Shown one piece after another: positions 22,605 through 48,500 of a stretch of 64,000 nucleotides of DNA. The stretch is from Amphiscolops sp. MND2022 (lineage: Eukaryota): the NCBI GenBank assembly GCA_964187785.1, contig OZ076409.1, forward strand, positions 14,944,001 to 15,008,000. Direction: 5' to 3'. Every line of letters starts with the position of its first letter. Within the stretch, counting starts at the first letter, position 1. The translations under genes and the position numbers were made by a program. The notes beneath the pieces were generated by a model. The model was given only the letters and a program-made list of their open reading frames with translations. It was not told the DNA's origin and searched no databases.

Positions 22605-22838
22605 AAAAACGTACGCGTGAAAACGAAGTGATCGCGGCGGTGAAGAAGTGGAATTGTTTTCAGTTTTAATTCAAATAGTGGAGGCTGCATTGTAATCCTA
22701 CAACATGTTTCTATTCGGAATAGAAACATGTTGTACATGTTGTAGGATTACAATGCAGCCTCCACTATTTGAATTAAAACTGAAAACAATTCCACTTCTT
22801 CACCGCCGCGATCACTTCGTTTTCACGCGTACGTTTTT
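22605..22838. repeat. Long near-perfect palindrome (112-bp arms, 1-nt centre, 9-bp duplication in the right arm)
   Basis: 22605-22716 is the reverse complement of 22718-22838 once one copy of catgttgta is removed; centre ctattc-g-gaatag. Confidence 0.95.
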
Positions 22839-23656: not shown

Positions 23657-25386
23657 TGTCGCAGGCTTCCACCTGCAATGGAACAATCATCACGACATCG
23701 GCAAACGGACAAGACGTCGCACCAGGAACAATTCCTACATTCTAGTGTTGAAAATGTAACATTTCCATGAAAAAAATCCTTAGTCAATTAAAGATTTTGA
23801 TATGGTACTTTGTATTAGTCTCTTAACTGTTGCTTAAAAATGCTGATTTAGTTTTTGTAGGTGATGTAAATTAGAATGAATTAGAATGCAAGCAATCCAA
23901 TTACTGTACGCTGTAAAGGAAACGAGTTCAAATGTTAAAACGTCTCGTTTCGGCGACGTAGTTCGTTCCCTGTTATTAACCAATCACAGTGCAGTATAGC
24001 TAGTATTATCTTTCAGCAATACATTATTCGGCTGGTTATGGCGGCTTGCCTTGATCGAAATACTACGCTTACGGACGCTGGTTCACTGGCCAATTCCGGC
24101 CTACTTGGTTTTTATCAAACAATCTGTGTTGTTTAACTTTTAGTGCAGTGCATTTCTTGGGAAGTGCTTGTAATTGTCTTAATACGCCATATGTAGTGAT
24201 TAAAGATGTTAAAGAAGCGGTGTTAATTGTTTTATTTAAACGATTAAACCCAAAGTCCAATTTGATTGGAGCATGACTTTATTATCCGTTTCTTGTATAT
24301 TGGCCAATTTGTGACAAGATTGCGAATGAAACCCATGATAGTAGAAATATTTGACCGGACATATATTTGTTTACAGGATTGAATGTAAAATGGAATGTTG
24401 ATGCGTATTTCTAGTACAGTTGAAGCTTTATTGCCATAAACAGTTGTTGCTATCTGTGAACTAGGAATGATTTTCCTCTTGACCATACACTAACAGGACA
24501 AATTCCTGAATTGCTTTGATGAAATTGTTGCCGCTAACAAATATTGATTTGGTAGTGTTCCGCACTGGTCAAGTGCTTTTTAAAGAATTTGTAAATAGTT
24601 AGGTTGATATGTAAAGAATGTGAGTGTCACCCTCTCTCTCAGAAGTATATTTTCTGGAGTATTCTTCTGGAGAGGGACACAATTTTTGCACGTCTTCTTT
24701 AGTTCAGCTTGGTAATATAGTCATTTAACTATACAACTTTCCAAACTTTGTTTTCCGAACAAAATAATTTAGTATTTTTACTCGGATTCTCCTCAATGCC
24801 TACTACCAGAAAGCAAGAGAAAGCTAGGAAGTCTGGGGGACTAGAGATGCTCTCTGATATTGAGAATATGGATATAATGATCCATGAAAATCATTTTGAC
24901 ACGGTAGAAAGAGAGGAAATTTTAAATAACACTTTTGCTAGAAGGCCTGAAATTGCTAATAGTAACAACCTTAACCATGATGATGAAAACATGTATTTGA
25001 ACCCAGGAGTTTTCAACTAAGGTGCTGACGCCGATCACGGCCGACACTCAGCAAGTGCCAACTCTAGTGCTGAGAATAATACATTGTCGAGTGAGTTAAA
25101 CTCGAGGCTTTCTAGACGTTTGTATGAAATGATAAGCAGTGTTATTAGCCAGATCCAGAAGGCGATTAGTGACGCAATTAGCTGCCAAATAGTGCCTCAG
25201 TTTCAAAATGCCCTAAATTCCGGATCGGGCCGTTTGACACAGAACGACAGAATGGATGGAACGTTCCGGCTGAGAGACCGGAAATTAACCCCGAAGTATA
25301 CCGCAGTGACAAAACTGAAAAAAACTCAAAAAGTGAGCCAATTGGTGATCGTCTTAACGACGATATCACACATCAAGCTTACAACA
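23657..25386 (+). repeat. 5' LTR of copy E (1730 bp)
   Basis: TGTCGCAGG...TTACAACA, followed by the PBS-like TGGTGATCGGAG; direct repeat of 35805-37023. Confidence 0.9.
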
Positions 25387-26507
25387 TGGTGATCGGAGAT
25401 AACGAATCTCCAATCCAAGTTCCTGAGTTTCTCACGAGACGAAGGCCATCACAAAGTCATCTCAACGATTCCCATGATGACCTCAATCCCCTTCTTGACG
25501 CGACGATCCCAGGACAAGAGAAAACTGCACCGGATATCGAATTAGATCTAATCAACAGGCTAACTGATGTCTTGACTAGTATGCAGAATCAACCAACGGC
25601 CCAACAACTCACTACTCGTCCGATCAACTCTAATACAATTACCTTTGACGGCAAAAGCGAAAAGTTCGAGCTTTTCGAGGATCTTCTCCACACCATGATC
25701 AAGATACAGCCCGAGATGTCTGAGCAAATGAAAATCAATCACTCTCACTCACTTTTGAGGAAAAATGCGTTGCAGACATTCAGAAACATTAGTACCGCTA
25801 ACAGGCAAACCCTCGAAGACGAATTAGTTATCTTCAGACGCAAATACGTCAAGCCTGAGTCACAAGCGACTGCCAAACACAATTGGCACCGCTTGGTCTT
25901 TGACCCTAACACAATGAAGTTACCAGACTTCCTTGAAGAGTTGAATCAAGGCGCAGGAAAAGCGTTCGAAGACAACGCCCGAAAATTATTTACAGTTTCT
26001 TATACGCAAAACTGCCGCCAAAGCTCAAAACATCAGTCAACATGGCCAGACTGGAAAGTGGCTCTTATGATGAATAAGTCGCTCATTTTGAGAGAGAATT
26101 AGAGCGTAACGCTCTTGAGGAATCTGACGACTTTCCAATGGCAACAATGACCTCCTCAACCCCCAAATCTCAAACCCCTCTCTCAACTGGACAAATGACT
26201 GACACGGACAAATTACTGCAAGGAAAAGGGCCATATGATCAAGGACTGCGAGAAACTGAAAAAGAAAAAGAAAAAGATGCCCAACAAGGCAAACCGACTC
26301 AGAAGAAAACTTATCCTGAGTGTGGAAATTGCGGCAAGAAAAACCATCCCGAGGAAAGATGTCGGCAAGGCGCAGGTGCGCACCAAGCGCAACAGACCTG
26401 AGGACTCAAATGACAGCAAAACAGATTCAAAAGTTCAAAAGCCTCATTCAAAACCGACATCGTCTAATTCCCAATCTTCATCCAAGAATGATGATTCCAA
26501 AAACTAG
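24796..26507 (+). pseudogene. gag: gag of copy E, frameshifted
   Basis: MPTTRKQEKARKS start; fragments closely similar to gag A, including CGNCGKKNHPEERC and the SKN* end. Confidence 0.92.
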
Positions 26508-29500
26508 CTTCGCCACGACCACAATATATCCAACTAGTATCAGTCCGACAAACATCAGGTCGGATCCTCCAGCAAAAACTTTTCATGACTATAAACAACA
26601 ATTGATGGGCTACCCCTCTGGTGTCTGGCAGCAGCGGATGGAAAAAGCTATCATTATTACTTTCAATAATGCTCATTTGTATCAAAACCCATTTCCTGTT
26701 TGTGTGATTGACGATTACAATCCAACGTACATCAATTCAGACTACGGTAGAGATACATATTGAGACACTGAGATCTATAATCAAGATCTATTACAATTCC
26801 AATACGTCCTAGATGACATCGAGCACTACAAAACAACAGTCCACGAGAACCCTCCAATAACGCGCAACAAGAAAACAAGAGCGTTGATTGAAACTTGGTA
26901 AATGAACAATGGCACCAACCATCCAGTGTCCCCAAACCCCTTGGGAACCAAGAACTCTGAACCCAAATTTGGGGAACTGACCATAGACGGCCTGATTGAC
27001 ACTGGAGCATTATCCAGTGCGGTTCTTTGAATGGACTTCCAGAAAATTTGACTCCTTTCTCCACAACCTGTTATCCGGGAAGGTCCGCCTCCGAATTCTA
27101 CAATCTTAAAACTACAATCGAGCTTATACTTGAGGTTGGTGATATCGAGTTCCACGAAATATTCATAGTAACGGAGCATTTGACGGGACCAATCATCGGA
27201 CTAATGGTCCCTCAGCGAAATCATACAGTTCTGGACATGAGACAGGGAATTCTGAACTTCCCGTTCTTTTCAATGCAGTTAAAAACAGCGGATCATCGAT
27301 ATTGGAACGTTTTGGAACTGAACCTCAATCCGACAGATGTTACCATTCCTCCGAATGATAGAGTCCTAATCAGGACAAATTCCCCACTTTACCCTGAGAA
27401 TGCTGTCACCTGGTTACTGCAACCGAGCGACCTTCTACATAAAGAGGGCGACATTACTTTTTCCCCATCTTTGGTCAGTTTGAATAATTGCAATATACAG
27501 ATACCGGTGAAAAGCTTCGCGGATCATCCCTACAAACTTTAAAAGAGACTCCATATTGCTAGCTTCTTTGTTATGACGCCAAAACAAATGAAACATGTCA
27601 AACCAATTGATCTGGCATCAACCTGGCACCTTCTGCAAAATAACTAAGAGCAGGCAGCCCATTATGTCAGCAGTCTCATCAAGACCAATTAAAAACCCTC
27701 AGATTTCCGAAAATTATTGGTTTCCAACTCCGGAAATCCCTGGAAACCTAGATGAGCACACTTCGATCCAGAAAAGGATACAACGGGAACTACAGGCCTT
27801 ACAGGACCTAGAAATCATTGACCCTACTAAAGATGAGAAATCTAGAGCAAAGTTTCAAGAAAATTTTGATTGGAAAGATTCCATTTTAGAGATTATTTGG
27901 GGCATTCGAAGAATTTGGGCATATTTTTTGGGGTGCGCCGAAACCGGTCATCACCCCAACTGACAACAAAGCTGTCACTCAATTTTTCCAAACGAAAATT
28001 GTACCCCCGTCCTGTGGATTGCTTGGGACTATGTAATACAATTCAATTTTGTCATAGCGCATATTCCAGGAGCACAGAATACGACAGCAGATTATTTGTC
28101 GCGCCTGGAAGCTGACCAAAAGGACAAACTAGTCATGAAAATCAGGGAGGACGTACAAACGGTCCCCATCGAGATAAATGTCCGTCAGCAGGCGTCGCCC
28201 AAGAAGAACAAATCTTCTATACAAATGATGACGATGAGACGGAAGGCCATAATTGGGCGAGGAAAGAAGCAATTCGACGAAATCCCGCCACATCAGAAAC
28301 AACAATTACAATCCAATCCGTCTCTGCAAACCTGAATAAACAACAACCTGAAATACAAGTCCGTTTAAGGAAGACGAACCAGATAATAATTGAGCATTCC
28401 AAAGATGCGGTAATACAGCAATTGAAGACAAAACTCCATCATGAGGACTATTCAGAGAAAGTACTGCAACAGGATGCCAGATACAGACATTATACAAACA
28501 ACTCAGAACGAATTATAGTCAAGGAAGACATCCTAACAATGCAAACAGGGAAATTAAAATACCATCAAATTCTCCTCCAACAGCTTTTGCTTCAAGAATT
28601 GTTTCAGTCCCTTCACGGAACGGCTCATAAGCACCCTGGCATCTCGAAATTGTTGCAGTAGATAATACAAAAGTATTACCATCCTAGCATGGCAACTCTT
28701 ATTAAAAAGTGGGTAGAAGGGTGCGAACAGTTCGAAAAAGGACAAACGTGGCCCCAATGCAACGATCAGGCTTGAACTACTTAACTTGTCCGAATGGGAC
28801 CTTGATTCCGAGGACGCTATGCATATCGACTTATTGTCAAATCTTCCTTCAAGAGGAGGTTTTGAAATTGTTCTAACTGCAATTGATGTCTTCTTTCGAT
28901 ATCTGTTCACATAAACTCTGACGAACGCCTCAGCGGTCAATGTAGCAAAAGTGCTCATTGACATAATGACTAAACATTTATAATTCAAAGGGTACTGCCT
29001 AATGAGAAATATATTGTACCTCATCTCAATACAAAAAAAACTCAAACTTTGCATCGCATTCGCCCTAAAAAGTTTGTTCCCAATCAACCGCTTGAGGACA
29101 ATTTCCGGGAAGAGCGACTACAGCAGGACGAAGACATTGTCATTCCGCAAGACAATTTGTACACAATAACGTGGGAAACAAACTCCGTTGAACAACTAGC
29201 TACACGAGGCAATGAGCAACTTCCGACTAGCATGCCGAACGGCGAAAGACAGATTACGTCAGATACGATTTGACCTGACGCACGCGAGAATGAAGCTGAT
29301 TACATATGCACGACGGATAGTCCGAATGACGTCAAGGATGTGGCGCAAAGTCAGAATGAAAGAATGAAAAATGACGTCAGCAACAGAAATGAAGCTAATA
29401 AATCTGAAAAGAATGAAAACTCTGATTGTCCGGATTCGACAGTTTACCACAAAAATCAAGAAAAAAGTTGTCCAAACTTGTCCAAAGGACAAGAAAATGA

Positions 29501-29688
29501 TGCCAATTTTTAGGAAGATAATTCTTCTAATGACAACGATGCACGAGACTCTTCAAAAAAGGGGGATGATATTGTCGTGCCCTAAATGTCTCAAAGCGAT
29601 GATAGAATTGAACGTCTGAGCCCTAGAGGAGGAAAACAAACGTCAAGCCTGACCCTAACCCAAACTACTCAGAAGATTTCAGATACTG
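26504..29688 (+). pseudogene. pol: pol of copy E with large internal deletions (RT lost near 27890; part of integrase lost near 28980)
   Basis: LIDTGALSS; DWKDSILE is joined directly to AFEEFGHIFWGAPKP; SLHGTAHKHPG; IDVFFRYLF; ends YSEDFRY*. Confidence 0.88.
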
Positions 29689-29904
29689 AAAAGGAGTGAA
29701 CTACGTCCAGAAACGAGCGGTATTTTTTCTTATTTCTTTTCTTTCATTTTTTCTGGTCCCATGAAAGTTTTTGGGACAATTGGAAAATCCCTTTGGAACC
29801 AAATAAGTACAGGGGTGCAGAAACAAAACGGAAAAACAACATCAGGGAGAAATCAATCAACAAAGATTACAGTTTTAACACGTACATAGATACATATGTA
29901 CATA

Positions 29905-32900
29905 CTAGTCTTTAGAGGAACACTGGAAAAGCTTTCTGGAAGACGATGAAAGGGTTGAACTACTGCTACCTAATCTTTTTTCTGTGATTTTGTATGAGAA
30001 TTGTTACTGCGGATTCATCGGGAACAAACGAAGCATTCGTTTTCTCAAGACGAACCGAACGGGCAATAGGGACAGATGTGACTGCCTTGTACGAAGCCAT
30101 TAGACCATTATAACTTTTGGACCGACCAAACGTATCAACGTATGTCCATTGGTCGTACTCGGCAGCAAAGGCGGATTGTCCAAAAGAAGCACTAAGGTGG
30201 GAGAATTTCTCCAAATTAACCTCGGTTATACAGCTGGGAATGGAACCTGAGACGCAGGAAAGATAACTTTGACCAGGCGTGACCACTGACAACGATATCT
30301 TGTTTTGTTAACAGTTCCAAATAAACACTGGAGAATACTGGGGACTGGAACACAGGCAGCACAATTTAAACAGATAAAGGAGATGCTCATGGGTTGGAAG
30401 AAATCGAGTTTCATCAGAAAATCTATGATGTCGTTGGAACTCTCTGAAAAGTTAAAATCAGGAGGGTAATTTACTCGCAAACAGTCCAGTAGAACAATGT
30501 ACTTGTCCCGGCAAAAATTCTCATTGTCGCTCGTCACCCAAGATCGACGTTGAAAGGTGGAATATATAAAGTCGAAGTGACGAAGGCCGATCTCTGCAGG
30601 TCTTTTAAACAAGATGAAAGGATCGAAAGCCGCTAGTCCTTTGACTATTTCCGATAGTAAACCAGACTGGTTGAGGACTTCCTTCAAAAAGTACTGGATG
30701 AATAGGAGCCCTTCTCTGGCAAAGCTTGATGTTGCCTCCTCTGCAGTCTGCAGTCTTGTGTATGGCAGCCTTTTCAGACTTCTTGTTCAAGTGGACGACT
30801 TCGGCGTTCTGCTTGCTGGCAGTAGCAACCTTATTGACCAAACGAAACCGGATTAGGAAATTCTCTTCTGTCAAGATTTTGCCCTCACTAACGTTGAATC
30901 CAAGCAGGAGGAACCACGAGTTTTCGAGTGGAATCGTCTCAGGCAGGTTACATCGGGAGCACAACATAGAGATGAATCGGCAAACTTCCCCACAAAGGAA
31001 GAATGTGGCATCCCGTCTGCTCTGAAGATTGATGACGAAACTGGTCACGTCTGAAACACAAATAATCTTTTGGGAGGAACCGGATATATGCGTAGGACTA
31101 GATGAGAGAACTCAGTGTATTTCCAATACAGAAATTCAAAGTCTTGTGCTATCATAATACAAAATCAGAACCCTGAATGTGGAATAGTCCGAATGCTCAC
31201 AATCACTGATGATGCGTTGGAGAACTCCAATTTCACAACGAAGAAGGTGTTGCAAACAAAAGACCAATCGAAACTCTGGACCTGCAACAAAACTTAAGTA
31301 AGAATGTGTACAGCTCATGTAACAAAGTTGAGGATCCCTCAATCCAAAAGTCCGTTTATTGGAATATAAGGCTCATCCGGGGAATCTAACCTGGTTGTGA
31401 ACCCCTTGCATTCCTTGATGTGGTGTGTGAGTAGTCAAATAGTGGCGAATTGTTTTCCAATGCTTCACCAGTTCGCGACAGAGACTCGGCAAGTTGGGCA
31501 AATCTAGTTTGCAAGTAGAAATAGCCTAAACGAACCATTGTTGTCAACAAGCCCTTTGTACCCTTTAGTTTTTTTATCTCGTAGATATACAAATAAACTA
31601 GCTTGAGCCAGTTTGGGCGACTATAGTACCCAGTCATCAGTAGTTGCTGCTCCCACTAAGCTTCGCAGAACCGAAAAGAAGTCAATTCGGCCAAGCACAC
31701 TGTAAGTGGGTTTATGCATCATGGTCTGTAGGTGCAGGTGCTCAAACCGGAAACAGCATTTTACAGCCCGCGAGAGAAGTCCACATTGGTCAATGGTGCG
31801 TATCAGCTCAACAGGGCAGCCTGAGCAAGCGACGATATAAGCCTTTGTGGAAACGACGGATAATATTCTGGACAATGACCCCAACTCTCCAGTTAAATCT
31901 GAGGAAGGGAGTCCACTTCAGCAAACGAAGACACGGCCTAGAGAGTCTCCTTTCCAGAACCTCATTGACATGAGTCTGTTGATACCGGCTCGTTCGTACT
32001 CGATCCCGAAATACTGAGTCGCTGCCACTTGCTCTGTTATGTCCTCCATAGCACAAATGAAGACATTTTGGATAATGGCCTTGAAAGAATATTAAAATAT
32101 TGGATTAGTCTTACTTAACGCATTTTGGTAGATTTAGAAAAGCAAAGCTACTTACCGAGATCCTTTCTTCTCTCCAATCAAAGTCACAGGGAATGTACTG
32201 GTAGTTTGTTAGTGAGCCGACTTGCGCCTACAACCTCCGGAGGACAGAAAGAGCTCCCTGGTACTGGACGAAATATCCTTCAACATGAATCTGTGTCTTG
32301 GCCCGGGATGAAGGTGTTACTAGTGTGGTTGCAGTGCCTTTGACAAAATCGTCGTAGAAAGGGAAACTCTCCCAATGTCAACTAACTCGACATGAATGAA
32401 ACGTGGTAGTTCTTTCGCCAGTCTGATCTTGCTCAAAACTTAACCAATTTGCCCTCTCACCCTGTGTTGCACTTTAACAGTAATTGGATGAACGCTCTTC
32501 AAGTTCTTTTATAACGCCATCTTTGATCTTTTCTGAGGCGCTTTTCCGTTCGATGGTGGCGCAAGATCTCTAGGGTGCCCTTGGTCTTTACGGATCTATT
32601 CTTCTTACAAATATGGCACCATACCATATGTGGGTTATGCAATGGAACAGGTGGCCGAGAAATAAAAGAACGAGTCAATTTTTGCGAAGTTTTGCTCCTT
32701 CATTGATACCCCTCGCGTCAGTCTTCGCTGTTTCCTCTTGGGCGTCTTACCAGGTCCTGTTGGACGTGATTCTCCGGGCGTTGCCTGGTGGCGCAATTCA
32801 GACAGTGTGGCATCTAGACTAGATTGCACGGTGGATTCAAAGCCTTTGCTCTGTGGTTTTGCTTCTACTAATCCTTGACTCCCAGGAATGGAATCCGTAA

Positions 32901-34241
32901 CAACGAGCTCTTTGAAAGCCTAGGAAACCAGAGCTGTCACTTTCATTGAAGGAATCAGAAACTGCTTTTCCTGCTTCCGTATTGAATTCCCCGGTCGTGT
33001 CAGTCCCGGCTCCGGAATCGTCTTCTTCATGTGTCCCATCACCAGAGTCTTTGAAATGTCTCGTTCGTGGTGTTTGGGCCCCAGTCTGAGACCTAAAATG
33101 GTCAGTCCTAGACCTAGATGTAACGGGTGCTCCCTTGACGGCTCCTATCACCATCTGTTCCATAGCAGTGTAGGACATCTTCAAAGTCTCATCTGTCAAG
33201 ACTAGTAGAAGGAGATACACCTGGGACTCTGTCAAAGCTACAGTTCTATGCCCTAACGGGAGGGTCATTATCGCGGCATCCTCGTCGGAACATTGTTTCA
33301 AAGTCGCGCTGCTACGCACAGATAGCTCTCATGTCCCAGCATCTTGTGGCTTGGAGGTTGACGGTCCAATTGGGTAGGTAAGTACCCGGAAGTACTTACT
33401 AAACTGTCATCTTCCCCAGGTGAAGGATCATTCGTAACTGGAATAAAGCCATGTAGCTCCGGAGAACTGAGTTGGCTTGATCCGTCCCCGGTCTCTTCTG
33501 CCTCTGTCCCATCATCAAGGAGCCACACTTTAGTTTCTCCTTGGGGAAGATTGGGCGAATCACAAAAAGACCTGTCTCAGGCTGCAGAAAAGGAACAGCA
33601 GATGCCTCATTGGTAGAATCTGCGGCAGGCAATATTTCCGGAAGAGCTGTCCTCGAAGAGGCGGCAATCCTGAGCCCACTTTCCAATTGCGTCAAAGTCA
33701 TCTCCGGAGCAGTCTCTGTTGTTCCAGGTATTGGAGTACTGGTTCACACAAGTAGATGAACGGATTCTGTCTAAGCCTGGGTAACAGACAGATCATCCGG
33801 CTTACACCCTTAACTTTCCACCATTTCTTCTTCTTCCACACTTCCCATTGCTTCTTCTATTTCTCCGAAATTCTCAGCAACTTGTTCGATATCTGACTGA
33901 TTCGCTAGTATCTGTGCTTCTTCAAGAGCACGAACCCTCTCCTCGGCGTATGCAGTGACGTCTACATTACTGTCAGTACTGTTGGGTGATCTAGGACGTC
34001 TAATAGGAGGAAATTGAGGCGGCGATGGTACCATGTTTGAAGCAGGATTAGTGTTCAAATCAGAGGCTGGTGTCTGATCTCTCTCGGTATTCTGGTTATC
34101 TAAAGGGTAGGAAATGAAGTTGGCGGCGTGCTTTCTTGAAAGAAATCCATTTTGTTGCATTAGAAAACTTCTAGAAGCATCTTCCGACCTCACTAGTCTT
34201 AGCACATGAATTAGACGGAAACAAGAAGCGTTCGTGAACAA
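29905..34241 (-). pseudogene. Antisense, intron-containing accessory gene of copy E
   Basis: Homologous to 10735-14809: EILRHHRTEKRLRKDQRWRY, CDFDW...RIS|gtaagt (32155), 135-nt exon 31525-31391, KGLAAFDPFIL, ends QCSSKD* at 29905. Confidence 0.8.
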
Positions 34242-34806
34242 GCTTTAGCCCTGATCAATTTAAACTAGTTCAAATTACTAAAAATCCAGACCAACCTGAA
34301 TTTGAACACATGGAGTTGCTCGTTTGCAAATGTGGAGACAGTGCTGCTGGGGATTTGAAAGTACTGGAAACTGGCCGAATCTGGCTGCGAAGGGAGTGTT
34401 GGAAGGTCCAATCCGAAAGGGAAGAAAGAAGATAATAACGGAAATTGTAGTTAATGAAAATAGATAAATCCAATAGGAGATGTGAATTGTAAAAAAAAAT
34501 GGAATCAAGAATGGACAATGCAATAGAGAATTAAAAGTTGGAGATCGTGGTTGAAGAAAATTACCAGACTAATACCTTGTGGATATCTAATTGTTTAAAA
34601 TTGTACATGGAGTCTGCCAGCGAAGTGTACAGAAAATCCTTCATTACTTAAAGCTTGATTAGTTAGAAGCCGATTCTGGCCATTTACCCTGTTTCGTTTT
34701 GCCGTTTTGCTACGTTATTCTTATTATTTTTAATTAGAATTTCCGCCACTTTGGGTTAGTTTAGTTCTCATTTTCGCCATTTCATTTATTCATTTTTATT
34801 TTTATC

Positions 34807-35893
34807 AATGGACAAATTTGATAGGCAAAATCGTTTTGAGAGAAATGATGACGGGAGTGATGAAGGGTAAACACCGGAATATCAAAGGCCGCTGACCATT
34901 GATGGAATTCCATTCAGAAGAGTTTACCCCGACTTATGAAGACTACCTGAAGTTATTACCGCCGAATTGGATATCCCTGGAAAAAGGCCTTTCTCGGCTC
35001 ACTTCGAGCAGCTTATCAGTTTCATTCTGATTGAAACTTTTTTCCACTCAGATGCATCGTTAAATTCTAAATTTGCTAAAAAGGATATAATGCAGAAGTT
35101 TAACTTGTCTAGAAAACTTTCGACTTTGAAGAACAAGACTCCAATCATTCAGCAAATTCAGTCACATACATTACTAGCGACAGTGAGGAAGAAGTCTCGG
35201 GTTCCTGGGATTCTGGAATTCGGACTGGTCTACGGACACAGAGGCGCTAATCAACAGGATAGAGCATGGAGTTAAATCGAACCCAATCCTCATTGGGGGA
35301 CGTGCCATGACTGTGGAGGGACTTGACGGTGAGATGGTGGCTTGTCCAAGTAACTCACAGCCGGGTCCGTCCTCTACCCCGAAACTGGTCCTGTAGTACT
35401 TCGAGAAGAAGCTGTGCTTTGTGCCCTCCAGAAACGTAGAGAAAGCAAAATAGAGCTTTGCAAGAACTTGCTTCCTGTCCTACAATCCCCCATGTCACCA
35501 CCTTCCCATGAAAGAGGGCCCGTAAAGGAAACGCGGTTGGCCCCGTTGCCACAACCGGCTAATTCCGGGTTCAGCGCTTCATATAATGTGCAAGACACGG
35601 TGCCTTACGAGAACGTCAGCAAGAAGATGTACACAAGCTGCATCGTTTGTGGGAGATCAGCTGACGCTATCAAGAGAGAGATGGCAGATGAATTTATAAG
35701 GAGATCAACACCAAGAGGTGAACTGGACTACGTCACAGCAATGAGGAAGGAAGCTTATTTAAATGGACTGAAAGCATGGTCGTTTTTATTTATTCCACCC
35801 GCACGGTCGCAGGCTGCCACCTGCAATGGAACAATCATCACGACATCAGCAAACGGACAAAACGTCGCGCCAGGAACGACTCGTACATTTTAG
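34807..35893 (+). pseudogene. 3' sense accessory ORF (ORF4) of copy E, ending inside the 3' LTR
   Basis: Fragments include the 159-aa ORF with SCIVCGRSAD...SQAATCNGTIITTSANGQNVAPGT; homologous to ORF4 of B. The start is approximate. Confidence 0.7.
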
Positions 35894-37023
35894 TGTTAAA
35901 ACTGAAACTTTTCCATGAAAATAATCCTTAGTCTATTTATACATTTTGATATGGCACTTTGTATTAGTCTGTTTACTGTTGCTTAAAAGTGCTGATTTAG
36001 TATTTGTAGGTGATGTAATTTAGAAATAATTAGAATGCAAGCAATCCAATTACTGAACGCTGCAAAAAAAAACGAGTTCAAATGCTAAAACGTGCCGATT
36101 CGGCGACGTAGCTCGTTCTCTTGTTATCAACCAATCACAGTGGAGTATAGATAGTATTATCTTTCAGGATTACATTATTTGGCCGGTTATGGCCTCTTGC
36201 CTTAATCTAAATACTAGACTTACGGACGCTGGTCCAATGGCCGATTCTGGCCTACTTGGCTTTTATCAAACAATCTGTGTTGTTTAATTCAAAGTTCCGT
36301 ACATTTCTTGGAATGTGCTTGAAATTGTCTCAATACGCCATATGTAGTAATTAAAGGTGTAAAAGAAATGTAGTTAATTGTTTTAATTACACGAAAAAAA
36401 CGCCATGTTCATTAAGATTGAAGCATGACATTATTATCCGTTTCATGTATATTGGCCAATTTGGGACAAAATTGCTAATAAAAGATAGTAGAAGTATTTA
36501 AACGGACATATAACTGTTTACACGATTGAATGTAAAATGGAATGTTGATGCATATTTCTACTACCGTTGAAATATTGTTGCCATAAACAATTATTGCTAT
36601 CTGTGAGCTAGGAATGAATTTCTTCTTGACCCTCACAGGACGAATTCCTGAACTGCCTTGATGAAGGTGTCGCCGCTAACAAATAATAATTTGGTAGTGT
36701 TCCACCCTGGTCATGTGCTTTTTAAGGAATTTGTAAATAGTTTGAATGATATGTGAAAAAAGTGAGTGTCACCCTCTCAGGTTAGTACCCAGATCCAAAG
36801 GGCGATTAGTGACGCAATTAGCAGCCAAATTTTGCCTCGGATTCAAAATGTCTTAGTACGGATTCCGGATCGGGCCATTTGACACTGAACGGATGGAACA
36901 TTCCGGCCGAAAGACCGGAAATTAACCCCGAAGTATACCGCAGTGAGAGAACTGAAAAAAACTCAAGAAGGGAGCCAATCCGTGATCGTCCTAACGACGG
37001 TATCACACATCAAGCTTACGACA
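35805..37023 (+). repeat. 3' LTR of copy E (~500-bp deletion near 36781)
   Basis: Aligns to 23657-24640, then jumps to ~25140-25386; ends TACGACA followed by the TSD. Confidence 0.9.
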
Positions 37024-40000
37024 TGGATCATACTACCACATTGTTTTCCACTTCGTACTACGTTTTTTGTCAGGTTTACATTACAGTCGCATTATGGCCT
37101 GTTTTAAAAATTGATCAGAAACAATATACAGAAAAAATTGAAGCGCTTGTGTTTTGCTCAACCATTGAACAATGAGATCCAGGTTTTTGTTAGAGCTCGG
37201 AAGAAAATTAGCACTGTGAAAATGAATGTTGCAAAAGAGCTTCGACCGAAGCTTCAATCTACAACGAAACTCTCAAGTATGTGAGTTTGAAGGATATGCT
37301 TGCAAACATTAATCTGAACTGAAATCTTGAGACGAAAAAACTACCCAGGTTCTTAGCAGCCTCGTTGACTTCTTTATGAATGAAGATTAACAACCGAACG
37401 AAGTCATGCACTTTCGAACTATCTTCCAGGTCTGTGTAAAACGATATCTTTCCCGTCAGGTATTCTTCCACTTTTCTCGTAGCCTCTGACATTTCCAAGG
37501 CAATTCCTGAAATATACATTCAATTTGGTTCTACTGGATAATTCAACATATCATAAACCATTTCACATATTGAAGGACACTCGAACTCAAAAGATGAAAA
37601 GAATTCAAAATGCAAAAGAATGATTTGAATAGAGACCTGATTGAAAAACATAGCCTTTTAGCAAAAACGACTAAGTTTACATTTAGACGTTTTAGTTTTT
37701 TACTGATGCTTAGTTTTTACTGATGATAATAGTTGAAATTTTAGCGTTCTTTCTTTTGTTTGGAATACAAATGTTTCCGACAGATCGGATTTCACCAAAA
37801 AATCCAAACTCACAGCTTTTTCAGAGTTTCCATATTTTTCATTTAGTTCCGATTTCAACTGATTTGAGAGTTAGGAAAATACCCGAAAGTGAAGGTTAAC
37901 GACTGGAAAACAGCAAGACCTTGATTGAGGATCTTCGTTTGCTTTGTTTTCATGAGTGAAGAAAGTACCATTAAACGGTTTTCTGCTAAAAACATGAATG
38001 TACGTTGATATGAAACGAAAACAAGGAAAAGCATAGGCGCGACGGCATGTAGCGCTTGGGCACGAGCAGAAACGTTCAATGGTCTGCAGAAAGTGTGAAA
38101 AATTCTTCGTGTTCCAGGACCTTGTGAACTTATCCAGTCTCAGATGAGGATAATTTTAATGAAGGAAATTTTCTTTTGAGAAAAATGGAAAAATGTATTT
38201 TTGGCAGGAACCCGAAGGCGTCACACGTCATGACGGAAACTTTGAAGGTACAAAAAGTAGCCTACATACTTGCCTCATTTTGTGAGGGAGAATGGTTTTC
38301 GTTTCTATTTTCAGTTCTGAGAAAAATCAGCCACAAATTGGAAAAAATGGAAAAAAATCAGAAAAATTTTACATTATTTGCTGATTAAAAACCAGAGCGA
38401 AAAAAATTTCGACATCACTTTTAGCCTGAAACGTAGCCTACATAAGCCTCGTAAAATTAACGAAACCATGAACCCCATATTTAGTCTCGGTCATGAGATA
38501 TACGAGCTCAAGTAAAAAAGAACAAGAAATTTTTTTGAAAAACATTGATGATTTTTGGCAGAAACCCGAGGGCGTCATACTTCATGACGGAAACTTTGAT
38601 AGTACAAAAAGTAGCCCACATACTTGTCTTACTTTGTGAAGGAGAATGGTTTTCGTATCTATTTTCAGTTCTGAGAAAAATCAGCTACAAATTTGAAAAA
38701 AATGGAGAAAATTCAGAAAAAGATTTTCATTACTTTATTTGCTTAAAAAAATCCAGGGCAAAAAAATTTAGACATCACTTTTAACCTAAAACGTAGCGTA
38801 CATAAGCCTCGTAACTTTAACAAAAACATGAACCCCATATTTGGTCTCGGTTTTGTGGGTTTTTGGCAGAAAAAAGAGGGTTTTTTTGGCAGAAAAAAGA
38901 GGCGTCATACTTTATGACGGTAACTTTTTGGTCCAAAAAGTAGCCCATATCTATGCTGTTCTTCTCGAAAGAGAACGGTTTCTGTGCCTTATATCAGTTT
39001 TGACAAACATGAGCTACGAATGAGAAAAAGTTTTCCGAAAAATTTTTTGTCCTCTTTTTTGCCCAAAAACACAAAGTATGAAAATAATTGACGTCATTTT
39101 TTGGACAAAATGTAGCCTATAAAACGCTTTTACCATTTACGAAACCATGGACCTTGTATAAGGTCTCAGTTCTGAGATATAGGGGATCAAAGAAGAAAAA
39201 TAGTCAAAAATAGCGTTTTTTTCAAAAATTTTTTTGAAAAAAACCCATGAAACCGTTTTTTTCGGAACTTATTTTCAGCGAAAATTTAGCCTAGGATCCT
39301 GCAAATTTTTTAACGAAAACATGGTGTCCGTATCTGTTCTGCGTTTTGAGAAACTTGCTCCACAAGTTTGAAAAATCGGCACATGTCACGAAATCTGCGG
39401 AAAAAAACATAGGCGCGACGGCATGTCGCCCTTGAGCACGAGCAGAAACGTTCAATGGTCTGCAGCAGGTGTTACAAGTTCTTTTTGTTCCAGGGCCCAC
39501 AACTTTGTGAACTTATCCAGTCTCAGATGAGGATATTTTGATGAAAGAACTAAAAAGGTGAAGGTAAACTTTTTTTAAAATGAAAAACTGAGTTTTTGGC
39601 AGAAACCCCAAGGCGTCATACTTCATGACGGAAACTTTGATGGTACAAAAAGTAGCCTATATACTTGCCTCACTTTGTGAGGGAGAATGGTTTTCGTATG
39701 TATTTCCAGTTCGGAGAAAAATCAGCTACAAATTGGAAAAAAAAGGAAAAAATTCAGAAATTTTTTTTTATTAATTTATTTGCAAAAAAAATCCAGAGCG
39801 AAAAAAATTTCGACATCACTTTTAGCCTAAATCGTAGCGTACATAAGCCTCGTAACTTTAACAAGAATATGAACCCCATATTTGGTCTCAGTCATGAGAT
39901 ATACGAGCTCAAGTGAGAAAAAAAACCAGGGAAATTTTTTTTGAAAAAATAAGTTTTTGGCACAAAAACGATGGCGTCATACTTGATGACGGTAACTTTT

Positions 40001-42450
40001 TGGTCCAAAAAGTAGCCCATATCTATGCTGTTCTTCTCGAAAGAGAACGGTTTCTGTGCCTTATATCAGTTTTGACAAACATGAGCTACGAATGAGAAAA
40101 AATTTTTCGAAACATTTTTTGTCCTCTTTTGCCCAAAAACACCAAGTATGAAAAAAATTGACGTCATTTTTCGGCCAAAATGTAGCCTATAAAACGCTTG
40201 TACCATTTATGAAACCATGGACCTCGTATTGGGTCTCAGTTCTGAGATATAGGGGATCAAAGATGAAAAATAGTCAAAAATAGCGTTTTTTCAAAAATTC
40301 TTTTGAAAAAAACCCATGAAACCGTTTTTTTCGGAACTTATTTTCAGCGAAAATTTGGCCTAGGGTCCTGCAAATTTTTTAACGAAAACATGGTGTCCGT
40401 ATCTGTTCTGCGTTTTGAGAAACTTGCTCCACAAGTTTGAAAAATCGGCACATGTCACGAAATCTGCGGAAAAAAACATAGGCGCGACGGCATGTCGCCC
40501 TTGAGCACGAGCAGAAACGTTCATTGGTCTGCAGCAGGTGTTACAAGTTCTTTTTGTTCCAGGGCCCACAACTTTGTGAACTTATCCAGTCTCAGATGAG
40601 GATATTTTGATGAAAGAACTAAAAAGATGAAGGTAAACTTTTTTTAAAATGAAAAACTGAGTTATTGGCAGAAACCCGAAGGCGTCATACTTCATGACGG
40701 AAACTTTGATGGTACAAAAAGTAGCCTATATACTTGCCTCACTTTGTGAGGGAGAATGGTTTTCGTATGTATTTCCAGTTCGGAGAAAAATCAGCTACAA
40801 AGTGGAAAAAAATCGAAAAAATTCAGAAAATTCTTTAAATATATTATTTGCTTAAAAAAAACCAGAGCAAAAAAAATTCGACATCACTTTTAGCCTAAAA
40901 CGTAGCCTACATAAGCTTTGTAAAATTAACGAAACCATGAACCCCATATTTGATCTCGGTCATGAGATATACGAGCTCAAGAAAAAAAGAACCAAGAATT
41001 TTTTGAAAAAAATGAAGTTTTTTGGAAGAAAAACGAAGGCGCCATGCTTGATGACGGTAACTTTTTGGTCCAAAAAGTAGCCCATATCTATGCTGTTCTT
41101 CTCGAAAGAGAACGGTTTCTGTGCCTTATATCAGTTTTGACAAACATGAGCTACGAATGAGAAAAAAATTTTCGAAACATTTTTTGTCCTCTTTTTTGCC
41201 CAAAAACACCAAGTATGAAAATAATTGACGTCATTTTTCGGCCAAAATGTAGCCTATAAAACGCTTGTACCATTTATGAAACCATGGACCTTGTATTGGG
41301 TCTCAGTTCTGAGATATAGGGGATCAAATATGAAAAATAGTCAAAAATAGCGTTTTTTCAAAAATTCTTTTGGAAAAAACCCATGAAACCGTTTTTTTCG
41401 GAACTTATTTTCGGCGAAAATTTAGCCTAGGGTCCTGTGCATTTTTTAGCGAAAACATGGTGTCCTTATCTGTTCTCGGTTTTGAGAAATTTGCCTCACA
41501 ACTTCAAAAAATTGGCACATGTCACGAAATCTGCGGAAAAAACAAAGGCGCGACGGCATGTCGCGCTTGGGCACGAGCAGAAACATTCAATTGTCTGCAG
41601 CAGGTTGTGAGGGTTGTGAGGGACAAAAAGTAGCATACATACTCGCCTCACTTTGTGAGGGAGAATGGTTTTCGCATCTATTTCCAGTTCGGAGAAAAAC
41701 CAGCTACACTTTGAAAAAATGGAAAAAATTCAGAAAAAATTTTTCATTACTTTAATTGCTAAAAAAATCCAGAGCGAAAAAAATTTCGACATCACTTTCA
41801 ACCTAAAACGTAGCCTACATAGGTTTCGTTAAGCTAACGAAATCATGAACCCCATATTTGGTCTCGGTCATGAGATATACGAGCTCAAGTAAAAAAGAAC
41901 TAAGAAACTTTTTTAAAAAAATTGAAGTTTTTTGGAAGAAAAACGAAGGCGTCATACTTGATGACGGTAACTTTTTGGTCCAAAAAGTAGCCCATATCTA
42001 TGCTGTTCTTCTCGAAAGAGAACGGTTTCTGTGCCTTATATCAGTTTTGACAACCATGAGCTACGAATGAGAAAAACTTTTTGAAACATTTTTGTCCTCT
42101 TTTTTTGCCCAAAAACACCAAGTATGAAAATAATTGACGTCATTTTTTGGACAAAATGTAGCCTATAAAACGCTTTTACCATTTACGAAACCATGGATCT
42201 TGTATTGGGTCTCAGTTCTGAGATATAGGGGATCAAAGATGAAAAATAGTCAAAAACAGCGTTTTTTCAAAAATTCTTTTGAAAAAAACCCTTGAAACCG
42301 TTTTTTTTTCGGAATTTATTTTCGGCGAAAATTTAGCCTAGGATCTTGCGCAACTTTTAGCGAAAACATGTTGTCCGTATCTGTTCTGGATTTTGAGAAA
42401 TTTGCCTCACAAGTTTGAAAAATTGGCACATGTCACGAAATCTGCGAAAA

Positions 42451-42540
42451 AAAACTTAACCATATGGGCATCTCCAAAGCTCGTGCCCCAAAAAAAACGT
42501 CACCATATGGGCATCTCGCAAATCTCGAGCCCCAAAAACA
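42451..42540. repeat. ~40-bp minisatellite (2 copies) inserted in one satellite unit
   Basis: ccatatgggcatctc...cgtgcccc repeated; same motif as 56363-56487. Confidence 0.85.
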
Positions 42541-45500
42541 TAGGAGCGACGGCATGTCGCGCTTGGGCACGAGCAGAAACATTCAATGGACTGCAGCAGG
42601 TGTTACAATTTCTTTGTGTTCCAGGGCCCACAACCTTGTGAACTTATCCAGTCTCAGATGAGGATATTTTGATGAAAGATGAAGGAAAATTTTTTTGAGA
42701 AAAATGAAAAAATGAATTTTTGGCAGAAACCCGAAGGCGTCATACTTCATGACGGAAACTTTGATAGTACAAAAAGTAGCCTACATACTTGCCTCACTTT
42801 GTGAGGGAGAATGGTTTTCGTATGTATTTCCAGTTCGGAGAAAAATCAGCTACAAATTGGAAAAAATTGGAAAAAATTCAGAAAATTTTTTTCATTAATT
42901 TATTTGCTAAAAAAATCCAGAGCGAGAAAAATTTCGACATCACTTTCAACCTAAAACGTAGCCTACATAGGTTTCGTTAAATTAACGAAACCATGAACCC
43001 CATCTTTGGTCTCGGTCATGAGATATACGAGCTCAAAAAAAAGAACCAAGAAACTTTTTTTTTAAATGAAGTTTTTTGGAAGAAAAACGAAGGCGTCATA
43101 CTTGATGACGGTAACTTTTTGGTCCAAAAAGTAGCCCATATCTATGCTGTTCTTCTCGAAAGAGAACGGTTTCTGTGCCTTATATCAGTTTTGACAACCA
43201 TGAGCTACGAATGAGAAAAACTTTTTGAAACATTTTTTGTCCTCTTTTTTGCCCAAAAACACCAAGTATGAAAATAATTGACGTCATTTTTTGGACAAAA
43301 TGTAGCCTATAAAACGCTTTTACCATTTACGAAACCATGGACCTTGTATTGGGTCTCAGTTCTGAGATATAGGGGATCAAAGATGAAAAAAAGTCAAAAA
43401 CAGCGTTTTTTCAAAAATTCTTTTGAAAAAAACCCTTGAAACCGTTTTTTTCGGAATTTATTTTCGGCGAAAATTTAGCCTAGGATCTTGCGCATTTTTT
43501 AGCGAAAACATGGTGTCCTTATCTGTTCTCGGTTTTGAGAAATTTGCCTCACAACTTTGAAAAATTGGCACATGTCACGAAATCTGCGGAAAAAACATAG
43601 GCGCGACGGCATGTCGCCCTTGAGCACGAGCAGAAACGTTCAATGGTCTGCAGCAGGTGTTACAAATTCTTTGTGTTCCAGGGCCCACAACTTTGTGAAC
43701 TTATCCAGTCTCAGATGAGGATATTTTGATGAAAGAGCTAAAAAGATGAAGGAAATTTTTTAAATGAAAAAATGAATTTTTGGCAGAAACCCGAAGGCGT
43801 CATACTTCATGACGGAAACTTTGATAGTACAAAACGTAGCCTACTTACTTGCCTCATTTTGTGAGGGAGAATGGTTTTCGTATGTATTTCCAGTTCGGAG
43901 AAAAATCAGCTACAAATTGGAAAAAAATGGAAAAACTTCAGAAAATTTCTTTAAATAATTTATTTGCTTAAAAAAACCAGAGCAAAAAAAATTCGACATC
44001 ACTTTTAGCCTAAAACGTAGCCTACATAAGCTTTGTAAAATTAACGAAACCATGAACCCCATATTTGGTCTCGGTCATGAGATATACGAGCTCAAGAAAA
44101 AAAGAACCAAGAATTTTTTGAAAAAAATGAAGTTTTTTGGAAGAAAAACGAAGGCGCCATGCTTGATGACGGTAACTTTTTGGTCCAAAAAGTAGCCCAT
44201 ATCTATGCTGTTCTTCTCGAAAGAGAACGGTTTCTGTGCCTTATATCAGTTTTGACAAACATGAGCTACGAATGAGAAAAAAATTTTCGAAACATTTTTT
44301 GTCCTCTTTTTTGCCCAAAAACACCAAGTATGAAAATAATTGACGTCATTTTTCGGCCAAAATGTAGCCTATAAAACGCTTGTACCATTTATGAAACCAT
44401 GGACCTTGTATTGGGTCTCAGTTCTGAGATATAGGGGATCAAAGATGAAAAATAGTCAAAAACAGCGTTTTTTCAAAAATTCTTTTGAAAAAACCCTTGA
44501 AACCGTTTTTTTCGGAATCTATTTTCGGCGAAAATTTAGCCTAGGATCTTGCGCATTTTTTAGCGAAAACATGGTGTCCTTATCTGTTCTCGGTTTTGAG
44601 AAATTTGCCTCACAACTTTGAAAAATTGGCACATGTCACGAAATCTGCGGAAAAAACATAGGCGCGACGGCATGTCGCCCTTGAGCACGAGCAGAAACGT
44701 TCAATGGTCTGCAGCAGGTGTTACAAATTCTTTGTGTTCCAGGGCCCACAACTTTGTGAACTTATCCAGTCTCAGATGAGGATATTTTGATGAAAGAACT
44801 AAAAAGATGAAGGAAATTTTTTAATGAAAAAATGAATTTTTGGCAGAAACCCGAAGGCGTCATACTTCATGACGGAAACTTTGATAGTACAAAAAGTAGC
44901 CTACTTACTTGCCTCACTTTGTGAGGAAGAATGGTTTTCGTATGTATTTCCAGTTCGGAGAAAAATCAGCTACAAATTGGAAAAAAATGGAAAAACTTCA
45001 GAAAATTTCTTTAAATAATTTATTTGCTTAAAAAAAACCAGAGCAAAAAAAATTCGACATCACTTTTAGCCTAAAACGTAGCCTACATAAGCTTTGTAAA
45101 ATTAACGAAACCATGAACCCCATATTTGGTCTCGGTCATGAGATATACGAGCTCAAGAAAAAAAGAACCAAGAATTTTCTTGAAAAAAAATGAAGTTTTT
45201 TGAAAGAAAAACGAAGGCGTCATGCTCGATGACGGTAACTTTTTGGTCCAAAAAGTAGCCCATATCTATGCTGTTCTTCTCGAAAGAGAACGGTTTCTGT
45301 GCCTTATATCAGTTTTGACAAACATGAGCTACGAATGAGAAAAAAATTTTCGAAACATTTTTTGTCCTCTTTTTTGCCCAAAAACACCAAGTATGAAAAT
45401 AATTGACGTCATTTTTCGGCCAAAATGTAGCCTATAAAACGCTTGTACCATTTACGAAACCATGGACCTTGTATTGGGTCTCAGTTCTGAGATATAGGGG

Positions 45501-48500
45501 ATCAAAGATGAAAAATAGTCAAAAATAGCGTTTTTTCAAAAATTCTTTTGGAAAAAACCCATGGAACCGTTTTTTTTCGGAACTTATTTTCGGCGAAAAT
45601 TTAGCCTAGGGTCCTGTGCATTTTTTAGCGAAAACATGGTGTCCTTATCTGTTCTCGGTTTTGAGAAATTTGCCTCACAACTTCAAAAAATTGGCACATG
45701 TCACGAAATCTGTGGAAAAAACATAGGCGCGACGGCATGTCGCCCTTGAGCACGAGCAGAAACGTTCAATGGTCTGCAGCAGGTGTTACCAATTCTTTGT
45801 GTTCCAGGGCCTACAACTTTGTGAACTTATCCAGTCTCAGATGAGGGTATTTAGATGAAAGAACTAAAAAGATGAGGGAAAATTTTTTTTAAATGAAAAA
45901 ATGAATTTTTGGCTGAAACCCGAAGGCGTCATACTTCATGACGGAAACTTTGATAGTACAAAAAATAGCCTACATACTTGCCTCACTTTGTGAGGGAGAA
46001 TGGTTTTCGTATGTATTTCCAGTTCGGAGAAAAATCAGCTACAAATTGGAAAAAATGGAAAAAATTCAGAAATTTTTTTTTATTAATTTATTTGCTAAAA
46101 AAATCCAGAGCGAAAAAAAATTCGACATCAGTTTTAGCCTAAAACGTAGCCTACATAAGCTTCGTAAATTTAACGAAACCATGAACGCCATATTTGGTCT
46201 TGGTCATGAGATATACGAGCTCAAGTAAAAAAGAACCAAGAATTTTTTTGAAAAAAAATGAAGTTTTTTGGAAGAAAAACGAAGGCGTCATATTTGATGA
46301 CGGTAACTTTTTGGTCCAAAAAGTAGCCCATATCTATGCTGTTCTTCTCGAAAGAGAACGGTTTCTGTGCCTTATATCAGTTTTGACAAACATGAGCTAC
46401 GAATGAGAAAAAAATTTTCGAAACTTTTTTGTCCTCTTTTTTGCCCAAAAACACCAAGTATGAAAATAATTGACGTCATTTTTCGGCCAAAATGTAGCCT
46501 ATAAAACGCTTGTACCATTTACGAAACCATGGACCTTGTATTGGGTCTCAGTTCTGAGATATAGGGGATCAAAGATGAAAAATAGTCAAAAATAGCGTTT
46601 TTTCAAAAATTCTCTTGGAAAAAACCCTTGAAACCGTTTTTTTTCGGAATTTATTTTCGGCGAAAATTTAGCCTAGGATCTTGCGCATTTTTTAGCGAAA
46701 ACATGGTGTCCTTATCTGTTCTCGGTTTTGAGAAATTTGCCTCACAACTTTGAAAAATTGGCACATGTCACGAAATCTGCGGAAAAAACATAGGCGCGAC
46801 GGCATGTCGCCCTTGAGCACGAGCAGAAACGTTCAATGGTCTGCAGCAGGTGTTACAAATTCTTTGTGTTCCAGGGCCCACAACTTTGTGAACTTATCCA
46901 GTCTCAGATGAGGATATTTTGATGAAAGAGCTAAAAAGATGAAGGAAATTTTTTAAATGAAAAAATGAATTTTTGGCAGAAACCCGAAGGCGTCATACTT
47001 CATGACGGAAACTTTGATAGTACAAAAAGTAGCCTACTTACTTGCCTCACTTTGTGAGGGAGAATGGTTTTCGTATGTATTTCCAGTTCGGAAAAATCAG
47101 CTACAAATTGGAAAAAAATGGAAAAACTTCAGAAAATTTTTTTAAATAATTTATTTGCTTAAAAAAAACCAGAGCAAAAAAAATTCGACATCACTTTTAG
47201 CCTAAAACGTAGCCTACATAAACTTTGTAAAATTAACGAAACCATGAACCCCATATTTGGTCTCGGTCATGAGATATACGAGCTCAAGAAAAAAAAGAAC
47301 CAAGAACTTTTTTGAAAAAAATGAAGTTCTTTGGAAGAAAAACGAAGGCGTCATGCTCGATGACGGTAACTTTTTGGTCCAAAAAGTAGCCCATATCTAT
47401 GCTGTTCTTCTCGAAAGAGAACGGTTTCTGTGCCTTATATCAGTTTTGACAAACAAGAGCTACGAATGAGAAAAAAATTTTCGAAACATTTTTTGTCCTC
47501 TTTTTTGCCCAAAAACACCAAGTATGAAAATAATTGACGTCATTTTTCGACCAAAATGTAGCCTATAAAACGCTTGTACCATTTACGAAACCATGGACCT
47601 TGTATTGGGTCTCAGTTCTAAGATATAGGGGATCAAAGATGAAAAATAGTCAAAAATAGCGTTTTTTTCAAAAATTCTTTAGGAAAAAACCCATGGAACC
47701 GTTTTTTTCGGAACTTATTTTCGGCGAAAATTTAGCCTAGGGTCCTATGCTTTTTTTAGCGAAAACATGGTGTCCTTATCTGTTCTCGGTTTTGAGAAAT
47801 TTGCCTCACAACTTCAAAAAATTGGCACATGTCTCGAAATCTGCGGAAAAAACATAGGCGCGACGGCATGTCGCCCTTGAGCACGAGCAGAAACGTTCAA
47901 TGGTCTGCAGCAGGTGTTACAAATTCTTTGTGTTCCAGGGCCCACAACTTTGTGAACTTATCCAGTCTCAGATGAGGATATTTTGATGAAAGAACTAAAA
48001 AGATGAAGGAAATTTTTTTTAATGAAAAAATGAATTTTTGGCAGAAACCCGAAGGCGTCATACTTCATGACGGAAACTTTGATAGTACAAAAAGTAGCCT
48101 ACTTACTTGCCTCACTTTGTGAGGGAGAATGGTTTTCGTATGTATTTCCAGTTCGGAGAAAAATCAGCTACAAATTGGAAAAAATGGAAAAAATTCAGAA
48201 ATTTTTTTTATTAATTTATTTGCTAAAAAAAAACCAGAGCAAAAAAATTCGACATCACTTTTAGCCTAAAACGTAGCCTACATAAGCTTTGTAAAATTAA
48301 CGAAACCATGAACCCCATATTTGGTCTCGGTCATGAGATATACGAGCTCAAGAAAAAAAAGAACCAAGAATTTTTTTGAAAAAAATGAAGTTTTTTGGAA
48401 GAAAAACGAAGGCGTCATGCTCGATGACGGTAACTTTTTGGTCCAAAAAGTAGCCCATATCTATGCTGTTCTTCTCGAAAGAGAACGGTTTCTGTGCCTT

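Follow-up and report, generated by a model that had tools for sequence, protein, structure and literature searches.

ORF4, a sense gene running into the 3' LTR of a Ty3/Gypsy-like retrotransposon lineage

Introduction

HIV/SIV nef and foamy-virus bel2 are 3' sense accessory frames whose C-terminal parts run into U3 of the 3' long terminal repeat (LTR). Coding sequence may also enter an LTR from the other side, as in Ty1, where gag starts within the LTR, although over far fewer codons than in the elements described here. In the Ty3/Gypsy element Cer1 of C. elegans, the accessible text of PMC10309623 describes CERV as a 517-aa protein made by splicing and in part shared with gag. The additional ORFs of the plant elements Grande, RIRE2 and Retand include, in the portion of PMC7264820 at hand, no sense ORF crossing into the LTR, and the bdelloid ORF3s are of env-like, GDSL, DEDDy, coiled-coil or TM types in the available part of PMC5408684. 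LTR elements are given as half of an acoel genome in the excerpted account of PMC9911081.

The window, a 64,000-nt stretch of Amphiscolops DNA, holds LTR elements designated here A, B and E, in which a further frame, ORF4, crosses from the interior into the 3' LTR. Like nef and bel2, ORF4 is a sense accessory ORF overlapping U3; unlike them, it has no match in sequence or fold (PDB, Foldseek and VIA-align, with low-confidence models) and resides in an env-less Ty3/Gypsy-like retrotransposon. The likeness to nef and bel drawn in a preliminary description of this DNA holds in position only. It likewise differs from CERV, as far as the accessible text describes the latter, in its length of about 260 aa, its own conserved N-terminus, its LTR overlap and its antisense partner ORF3, and it matches none of the bdelloid types named in that source's available part.

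Architecture of the elements

Element E spans 13,367 bp (23657-37023) and is complete, with TGTCG...CGACA ends, a 5-bp target-site duplication (TGGAT) and a primer-binding site. Identity between its two LTRs is 87% (1210 aligned bases), and the insertion is therefore old. Its parts, and the corresponding parts of A and B, are as follows.

23652-23656 (+): target-site duplication TGGAT, left copy; right copy at 37024-37028
23657-25386 (+): 5' LTR of E (1730 nt), opening with the ORF4 tail and containing the gag ATG at 24796 (197 codons)
25387-25398 (+): sequence resembling a primer-binding site, with TGG as its first letters, immediately adjacent to the 5' LTR and within the gag frame; the same in A
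24796-29686 (+): gag and pol of E, decayed, most of RT deleted (Pfam; tblastn with intact Pol relatives)
29966-34244 (-): antisense ORF3 of E, broken, head-to-head with ORF4; six blocks matching B 11809-14611
32502-32699 (-): C2H2-like finger in E ORF3
35805-37023 (+): 3' LTR of E, 1219 nt after loss of about 500 nt; the ORF4 C-terminus occupies its first 89 nt, part of the gag head its end
4087-5791 (-): 5' LTR of A, 1705 nt, gag ATG at 4654, ORF4 tail at 5791-5703
8670-9500 (-): ORF4 of B, interrupted by stops; the LTR runs from 8764 to 7638
21939-22228 (-): 3' portion of another B-family ORF4, continuing into the other LTR of B, which starts at 22033
24796-25386 (E, +), 4654-4087 (A, -), 8208-7638 (B, -): gag head inside the LTR, about 190 codons

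The LTRs begin at 35805 and 23657 in E, at 5791 in A and at 8764 and 22033 in B; those of A and B have the same ends as E (TG...CA), and full length is 1705-1730 nt (A, E). The last 570-590 nt of the LTR are the first 189-197 codons of gag, whose frame continues through the primer site. Between A and E, identities of 0.66/0.74/0.36 at the three codon positions over 120 ungapped codons show that this gag head is constrained as coding sequence. With the ORF4 tail at its start and the gag head at its end, the LTR is protein-coding at both ends, as had been proposed, and 3' and solo LTRs consequently carry a gag head open to the flank. A search for a tRNA matching the primer-binding site of E and A gave no match.

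Five intact Pol relatives contain, by Pfam, a protease, a dUTPase-like domain, RT, one RNase H and an integrase; P0438 and A's pol share 94% identity across 943 aa. The best PDB match of an intact Pol relative is Ty3 (E 2e-47); an RT fragment alone scores best against foamy virus (E 7e-18, versus 1e-9 for Ty3). TG...CA ends with a 5-bp duplication, the order protease, RT, RNase H, integrase, and a primer-binding site after the 5' LTR are thus all found as in Ty3/Gypsy elements. The domain order and single RNase H are those of Ty3 itself, whereas the dUTPase-like domain after the protease, the 1.7-kb LTR with about 190 gag codons, the two extra ORFs and the lack of a polypurine tract are not; for want of that tract the element is filed only as Ty3/Gypsy-like. 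In the window, the dUTPase-like domain lies between protease and RT at 18426-18926 (-), with a Pfam E of 5.5e-4 (5e-6 in intact P0376).

Two other affiliations were considered and rejected. Odin, lokiretrovirus and Retroviridae have a dual RNase H, a tether plus an acquired RH, according to the accessible portion of PMC9040795; the present elements have one Ty3-type RH per Pol unit, and Pfam finds no second RH family at E 0.1. Troyka, in the available text of PMC12440569, has CG...CG termini, a 3-bp target-site duplication and LTRs of 100-400 bp; here there are instead TG...CA ends, a 5-bp duplication and a 1.7-kb LTR.

The antisense ORF3 lies between pol and ORF4 in B as well as in E, and the two versions align in six blocks at 26-50% identity. 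ORF3 (29966-34244 (-) in E, 10714-14680 (+) in B) has an acidic disordered N-terminus and a C2H2-like finger. Pfam and PDB searches with it returned no match; it may derive from a hAT-type transposase. Within the LTR, a stem-loop at 24620-24681 in E and 4805-4749 (-) in A precedes the gag ATG by about 95-115 nt; at -26 and -25 kcal/mol, calculated with no shuffle control, and with differing sequences in E and A, it is a candidate packaging or dimerisation signal, and it was not found in B.

At 22228-22034 (-), 195 nt of internal ORF4 sequence precede B's 5' LTR and form the 3' end of another B-family copy; that is, a second copy shares B's LTR, in tandem or as a recombinant. A 219-aa open frame with no Pfam match lies between A and B, outside both (5880-6539 (-)), and a 234-bp, MITE-like palindrome, 92% self-complementary, occupies 22605-22838. 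In the satellite array at 38027-56367, a unit of about 1064 nt recurs about 17 times; the units are 91-96% alike, and subrepeats of about 350 nt within them show about 68% likeness. The GC- and A-skewed segment 62231-64000, which has several open frames and no nucleotide match to A, B or E, is possibly another element.

ORF4 and its relatives

In E, ORF4 is a decayed gene of about 260 aa whose surviving features are these.

35090-35893 (+): ORF4 of E, whole gene, in three reading frames with one in-frame stop; ATG at 35090 (extent supported by tblastn of intact relatives)
35354-35893 (+): longest frame still open (179 aa); its homology to intact ORF4 begins at about 35420
35161-35193 (+): decayed N-terminal SUMO-interacting-like motif with serine/acidic run (three-frame translation; motif counts in intact relatives)
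35639-35650 (+): CxxC, followed as far as the LTR edge by a predicted hairpin of two helices (alignment; AlphaFold2)
35036-35051 (+): weak splice-acceptor-like pyrimidine run with CAG, 37 nt before the ORF4 ATG

The sense frame 35354-35893, open over 179 aa from stop to stop, carries the pattern CxxCG...SQxxxCxG...PG and is the 3' two-thirds of the gene; its first 20 or so codons lie outside the ORF4 protein. Intact relatives are 256-283 aa long; P0111, P0103 and P0093 align to E by tblastn in three frames, at 35113-35214, 35214-35522 and about 35420-35890, and the gene starts at the ATG at 35090. The open frame first reported is therefore real, yet it is only the 3' part of the gene. Its last 89 nt, stop included, are the first 89 nt of the LTR, in agreement with the roughly 30 codons and 90 nt estimated earlier; in the lineage as a whole, the LTR takes in the final 28-32 codons of ORF4. 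With the frame as tblastn query, two minus-strand matches lie in B (8930-8706 and 22199-21975), both at 32% identity across 75 aa (E 3e-11 to 8e-11); further matches are A's LTR-borne tail at 5789-5706 (68%) and E's own 5' LTR at 23641-23742. The tail of A (5791-5703) is identical to intact P0093 at 29/29 residues. The claim that one CxxC sense ORF is common to E, B and, as a tail, A thus stands, although stop codons interrupt B's copy at about 9500-8670. In 3/4 copies the acceptor-like site, 37-53 nt before the ATG, has 9-10 pyrimidines of 12; a count of 10 is attained by about 7% of background windows.

Beyond the window, an ORF4 profile search gave 403 clusters at 90% identity; among the best 120 of these, many are 256-262 aa long with tens to over a hundred members, fragments included. 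An exhaustive search, clustered at 50%, returned 432 representatives; none of the best 150 is longer than 283 aa, so that there is no fusion among those 150. The source records inspected are from ENA or JGI. Full-length proteins make up 13/15 listed members of the P0009 cluster (256-257 aa), 14/15 of P0239 (279-286 aa), 7/15 of P0268 (273 aa) and 6/15 of P0017, while none of the 15 listed members of P0002 exceeds 218 aa; the frame is accordingly open in young copies, the lack of which had been named as a ground for abandoning the gene. The lineage is large and recently active. A metagenome scan yielded two DNA loci, L001 and L002, from 197 pattern matches, and none was confirmed among the viral contigs scanned. 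Both contigs stop within about 100 nt of the LTR start. CCAAT/ATTGG boxes, recorded with no chance control, occur upstream of ORF4 in L001 (1-460) and L002 (200-555) and likewise in the ORF3-ORF4 spacers of E and B.

Selection on the protein is apparent at several distances. Families only 26-34% identical keep 245-283 aa and the order of motifs. Over 55 ungapped codons from the CxxC to the LTR edge, compared in E, two B copies, L001 and L002, all 9/9 between-family pairs have pS of 0.74-0.90 against pN of 0.33-0.46, and identity upstream of the LTR is 0.27-0.42 at third codon positions versus 0.51-0.76 at second positions. Synonymous sites are thus saturated between families while the protein is kept, which implies constraint on the protein; the suggestion that conservation might be explained entirely at the nucleotide level falls with this result. 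Between families, dN/dS is imprecise owing to that saturation and to there being only 5-7 DNA copies, and printed values of 0.00 are saturation artefacts. The LTR-borne tail gives 0.18 and 0.26 for E against A (0.14 and 0.26 minus its first 7 codons); for the pair of B copies the ratio is 0.97, the value to be expected if they decayed once inserted. ORF4 is almost certainly a selected accessory gene.

The LTR junction and the missing polypurine tract

At the junction itself, protein and DNA are read together. The TG of the LTR falls within the codon preceding SQ. In all 215 motif-bearing proteins (366 scanned) this codon encodes V, L or M, in 191, 23 and 1 cases respectively; the proteins are related, and the cases are thus not independent of one another. 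All three can be coded as NTG; I never occurs there, and is common four residues upstream. Among the DNA copies, 6/7 have NTG at this codon, the exception being the decayed 3' copy of E. The first 7-8 LTR codons are near-identical in DNA across families, which makes the SQ part of the motif weak evidence for protein function; within these codons Ser, Ala, Cys and Asp codons vary synonymously, the LTR-borne Cys using both of its codons. The residues at the LTR start, and only these, are fixed also by DNA. The conserved SQxxxC of the preliminary description is consequently present, but held in part by its place at the LTR terminus.

No polypurine tract was found abutting the 3' LTR in the DNA copies, and the codons of most intact proteins leave no room for one. 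In the 30 nt before the LTR the longest purine runs are 2, 6, 6, 7 and 5 in five DNA copies. From the amino acids alone of 64 non-redundant intact proteins, 52/64 allow at most 2 purines next to the LTR TG, with runs of 2-4 in the 25 nt before; 6/64 allow no purine against the TG, with runs of 4-7 just before; and 6/64 allow a 6-8-purine run abutting the LTR. Whereas nef spans and keeps its polypurine tract, the codons of ORF4 exclude one in most families. Active copies probably lack the tract.

Anatomy of the ORF4 protein

Residues 1-60 are acidic (net -8 to -16) and serine-rich. By the strict pattern, 53/64 non-redundant intact proteins and 5/9 deep families have here a hydrophobic core followed by SSD and acids, which appears in 95/18000 shuffled N-termini (0.5%) and lies in a region unstructured in the models. 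SUMO-interacting motifs (SIMs) are defined, in the available part of PMC12751080, by a hydrophobic core plus acidic and CK2-type serines, and the ORF4 motif, as judged from its residues, fits the form of a phosphorylatable SIM. SIMs are loose motifs in general, and B-type families are without the ORF4 one at that place (4/9 deep families by the strict pattern, 3/9 by the loose one) and have an I-[EQ]-[VE]-[IF] stretch further along. A predicted helix and a proline-rich linker follow, with S/T-P-x-S-P in 56/67 proteins. Five Cys/His are near-invariant (C121, H160, C178, C181 and C239 in P0095 numbering; 65-67/67); the CxxC is invariant in 67/67 aligned proteins, and C239 is encoded by the LTR. 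Two AlphaFold2 runs gave mean pLDDT of 52 and 55, confident (about 90) only for the helix-helix hairpin right after the CxxC. A homodimer-with-zinc prediction scored 0.61, as did its control.

Profile and structure searches, which the preliminary description had called for, revealed no known homologue or fold. Pfam gave no homologue above cut-off, PDB sequence search 0 matches and Foldseek against PDB and viral structures 0 matches at E 0.001 (with models mostly of low confidence); the best VIA-align hit (Z 5.3) covers the generic helical hairpin only, and the ESM Atlas has no usable match for E ORF4. Several candidates were set aside. The Spin-doc zinc finger PF18658 is sub-threshold in 9/32 members (best E 0.005) but in only 1/25 of a deeper set; kinship with the ORF3 finger has a profile-comparison probability of 0.1; and piggyBac-N-like acidic proteins, ESM Atlas leads under 0.9 for P0095, were taken as compositional. 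A basic nuclear-localisation cluster is inconsistent (5/9 deep families).

A proposed regulatory role and its alternatives

ORF4 is probably a soluble regulator. The earlier proposal is supported, its regulatory part remaining an inference. A more specific reading, that it is a soluble zinc-binding regulator engaging the SUMO-marked silencing machinery, has a probability of about 0.45. ORF4 would be made from its own short transcript, either from an internal promoter back-to-back with antisense ORF3 or by splicing to the acceptor-like site. Four of the five conserved Cys/His would bind zinc and anchor the helical hairpin, which may be a binding module for DNA or a partner, while the phosphorylatable SIM of the disordered acidic N-terminus would engage, or compete for, SUMO-dependent silencing complexes. 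Docking on SUMO-marked host chromatin proteins could then bring about anti-silencing or transactivation, and the element would stay expressed. In flies, SUMO and SIM-bearing effectors drive piRNA-guided silencing (PMC8490990, as far as its available text goes), and because they are central to it a competing SIM is a plausible counter-measure. The proposed role resembles that of VANC, the anti-silencing proteins of Arabidopsis VANDAL transposons in the accounts available, in being an element-encoded counter to silencing; the two are likened by role alone, VANC coming from a DNA transposon and a plant DNA-methylation context. The literature searched contained no element-encoded anti-silencing protein acting via SUMO.

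Alternatively, ORF4 might be a Rev- or CERV-like factor that exports or stabilises unspliced genomic RNA. The dispersed Cys/His, the S/T-P-x-S-P motif (56/67) and the possible upstream splice acceptor are compatible with such a function; an arginine-rich RNA-binding stretch is nevertheless absent, the N-terminus is strongly acidic and the protein is half the length of CERV, with which it was compared by description, so that this role is unlikely. A self-limiting or host-modulating factor, whether controlling copy number or antagonising cytoplasmic restriction in a nef-like role, would suit a small, largely disordered, motif-rich protein encoded where nef and bel2 are, but no Met-Gly start was seen among the intact proteins inspected, which argues against nef-type myristoylation, and there is no membrane segment; we regard it as quite unlikely.

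The missing tract raises the further idea that ORF4, by itself or together with ORF3, has a part in reverse transcription or integration, such as enabling plus-strand priming at the junction. Codons that bar a tract in 52/64 proteins, purine runs of 2, 6, 6, 7 and 5 in DNA copies, and the many intact copies of families that lack the tract speak for it, although no enzymatic fold or nucleic-acid-binding family was detected in ORF4, RT/RNase H could select a non-canonical RNA primer without it, and 6/64 proteins do allow a 6-8-purine run abutting the LTR. On balance the idea is improbable, and compensation by ORF4 for the missing tract is a long shot. It is very improbable that all of the following hold together: the tract was overwritten by the gene, priming is non-canonical and ORF4-dependent, a phospho-SIM counters SUMO silencing, and ORF3 and ORF4 form a retrovirus-like cassette that evolved independently.

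An envelope or small fusogen, for which ORF4 is in the usual place and for which env-less infectious elements that use small ORFs (sORF2, in the available text of bioRxiv 10.1101/2025.03.14.642691) offer a precedent, is extremely improbable. No transmembrane segment was found: the Kyte-Doolittle 19-residue maximum has a median of 1.30 and reaches 1.6 in 1/64 proteins, the best windows mostly hold Pro and often Arg, and the acidic N-terminus has no hydrophobic leader. The earlier judgement that ORF4 does not look like env is thereby borne out, and Env and sORF2-FAST fusogens were rejected as candidates on the same hydropathy scan for signal peptide and transmembrane segment. Next to no credence can be given to the view that the frame is a by-product of conserved cis-acting DNA at the LTR end, which the near-identical first 7-8 LTR codons and the NTG-codable residue before SQ (215/215) would favour, since it is refuted, except at the junction codons, by synonymous saturation alongside retained amino acids, both upstream of the LTR and across the remaining tail, and by frames of 245-283 codons open at 26-34% identity.

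Conclusion

No published description of the lineage of E and its ORF4 was found in the freely accessible literature searched, although Repbase may contain it; what is new is the ORF4 family, its combination with antisense ORF3, protein-coding sequence at both LTR ends and the loss of the purine tract. Non-env accessory genes of LTR retrotransposons with a tested function are rare (CERV and sORF2), and this lineage opens two questions, that of the evasion of host silencing and that of how the plus strand starts without a purine tract. Annotation tools that require a polypurine tract or a non-coding LTR would mis-delimit such elements. Every solo LTR, moreover, would carry a promoter and about 190 gag codons open to the flank.
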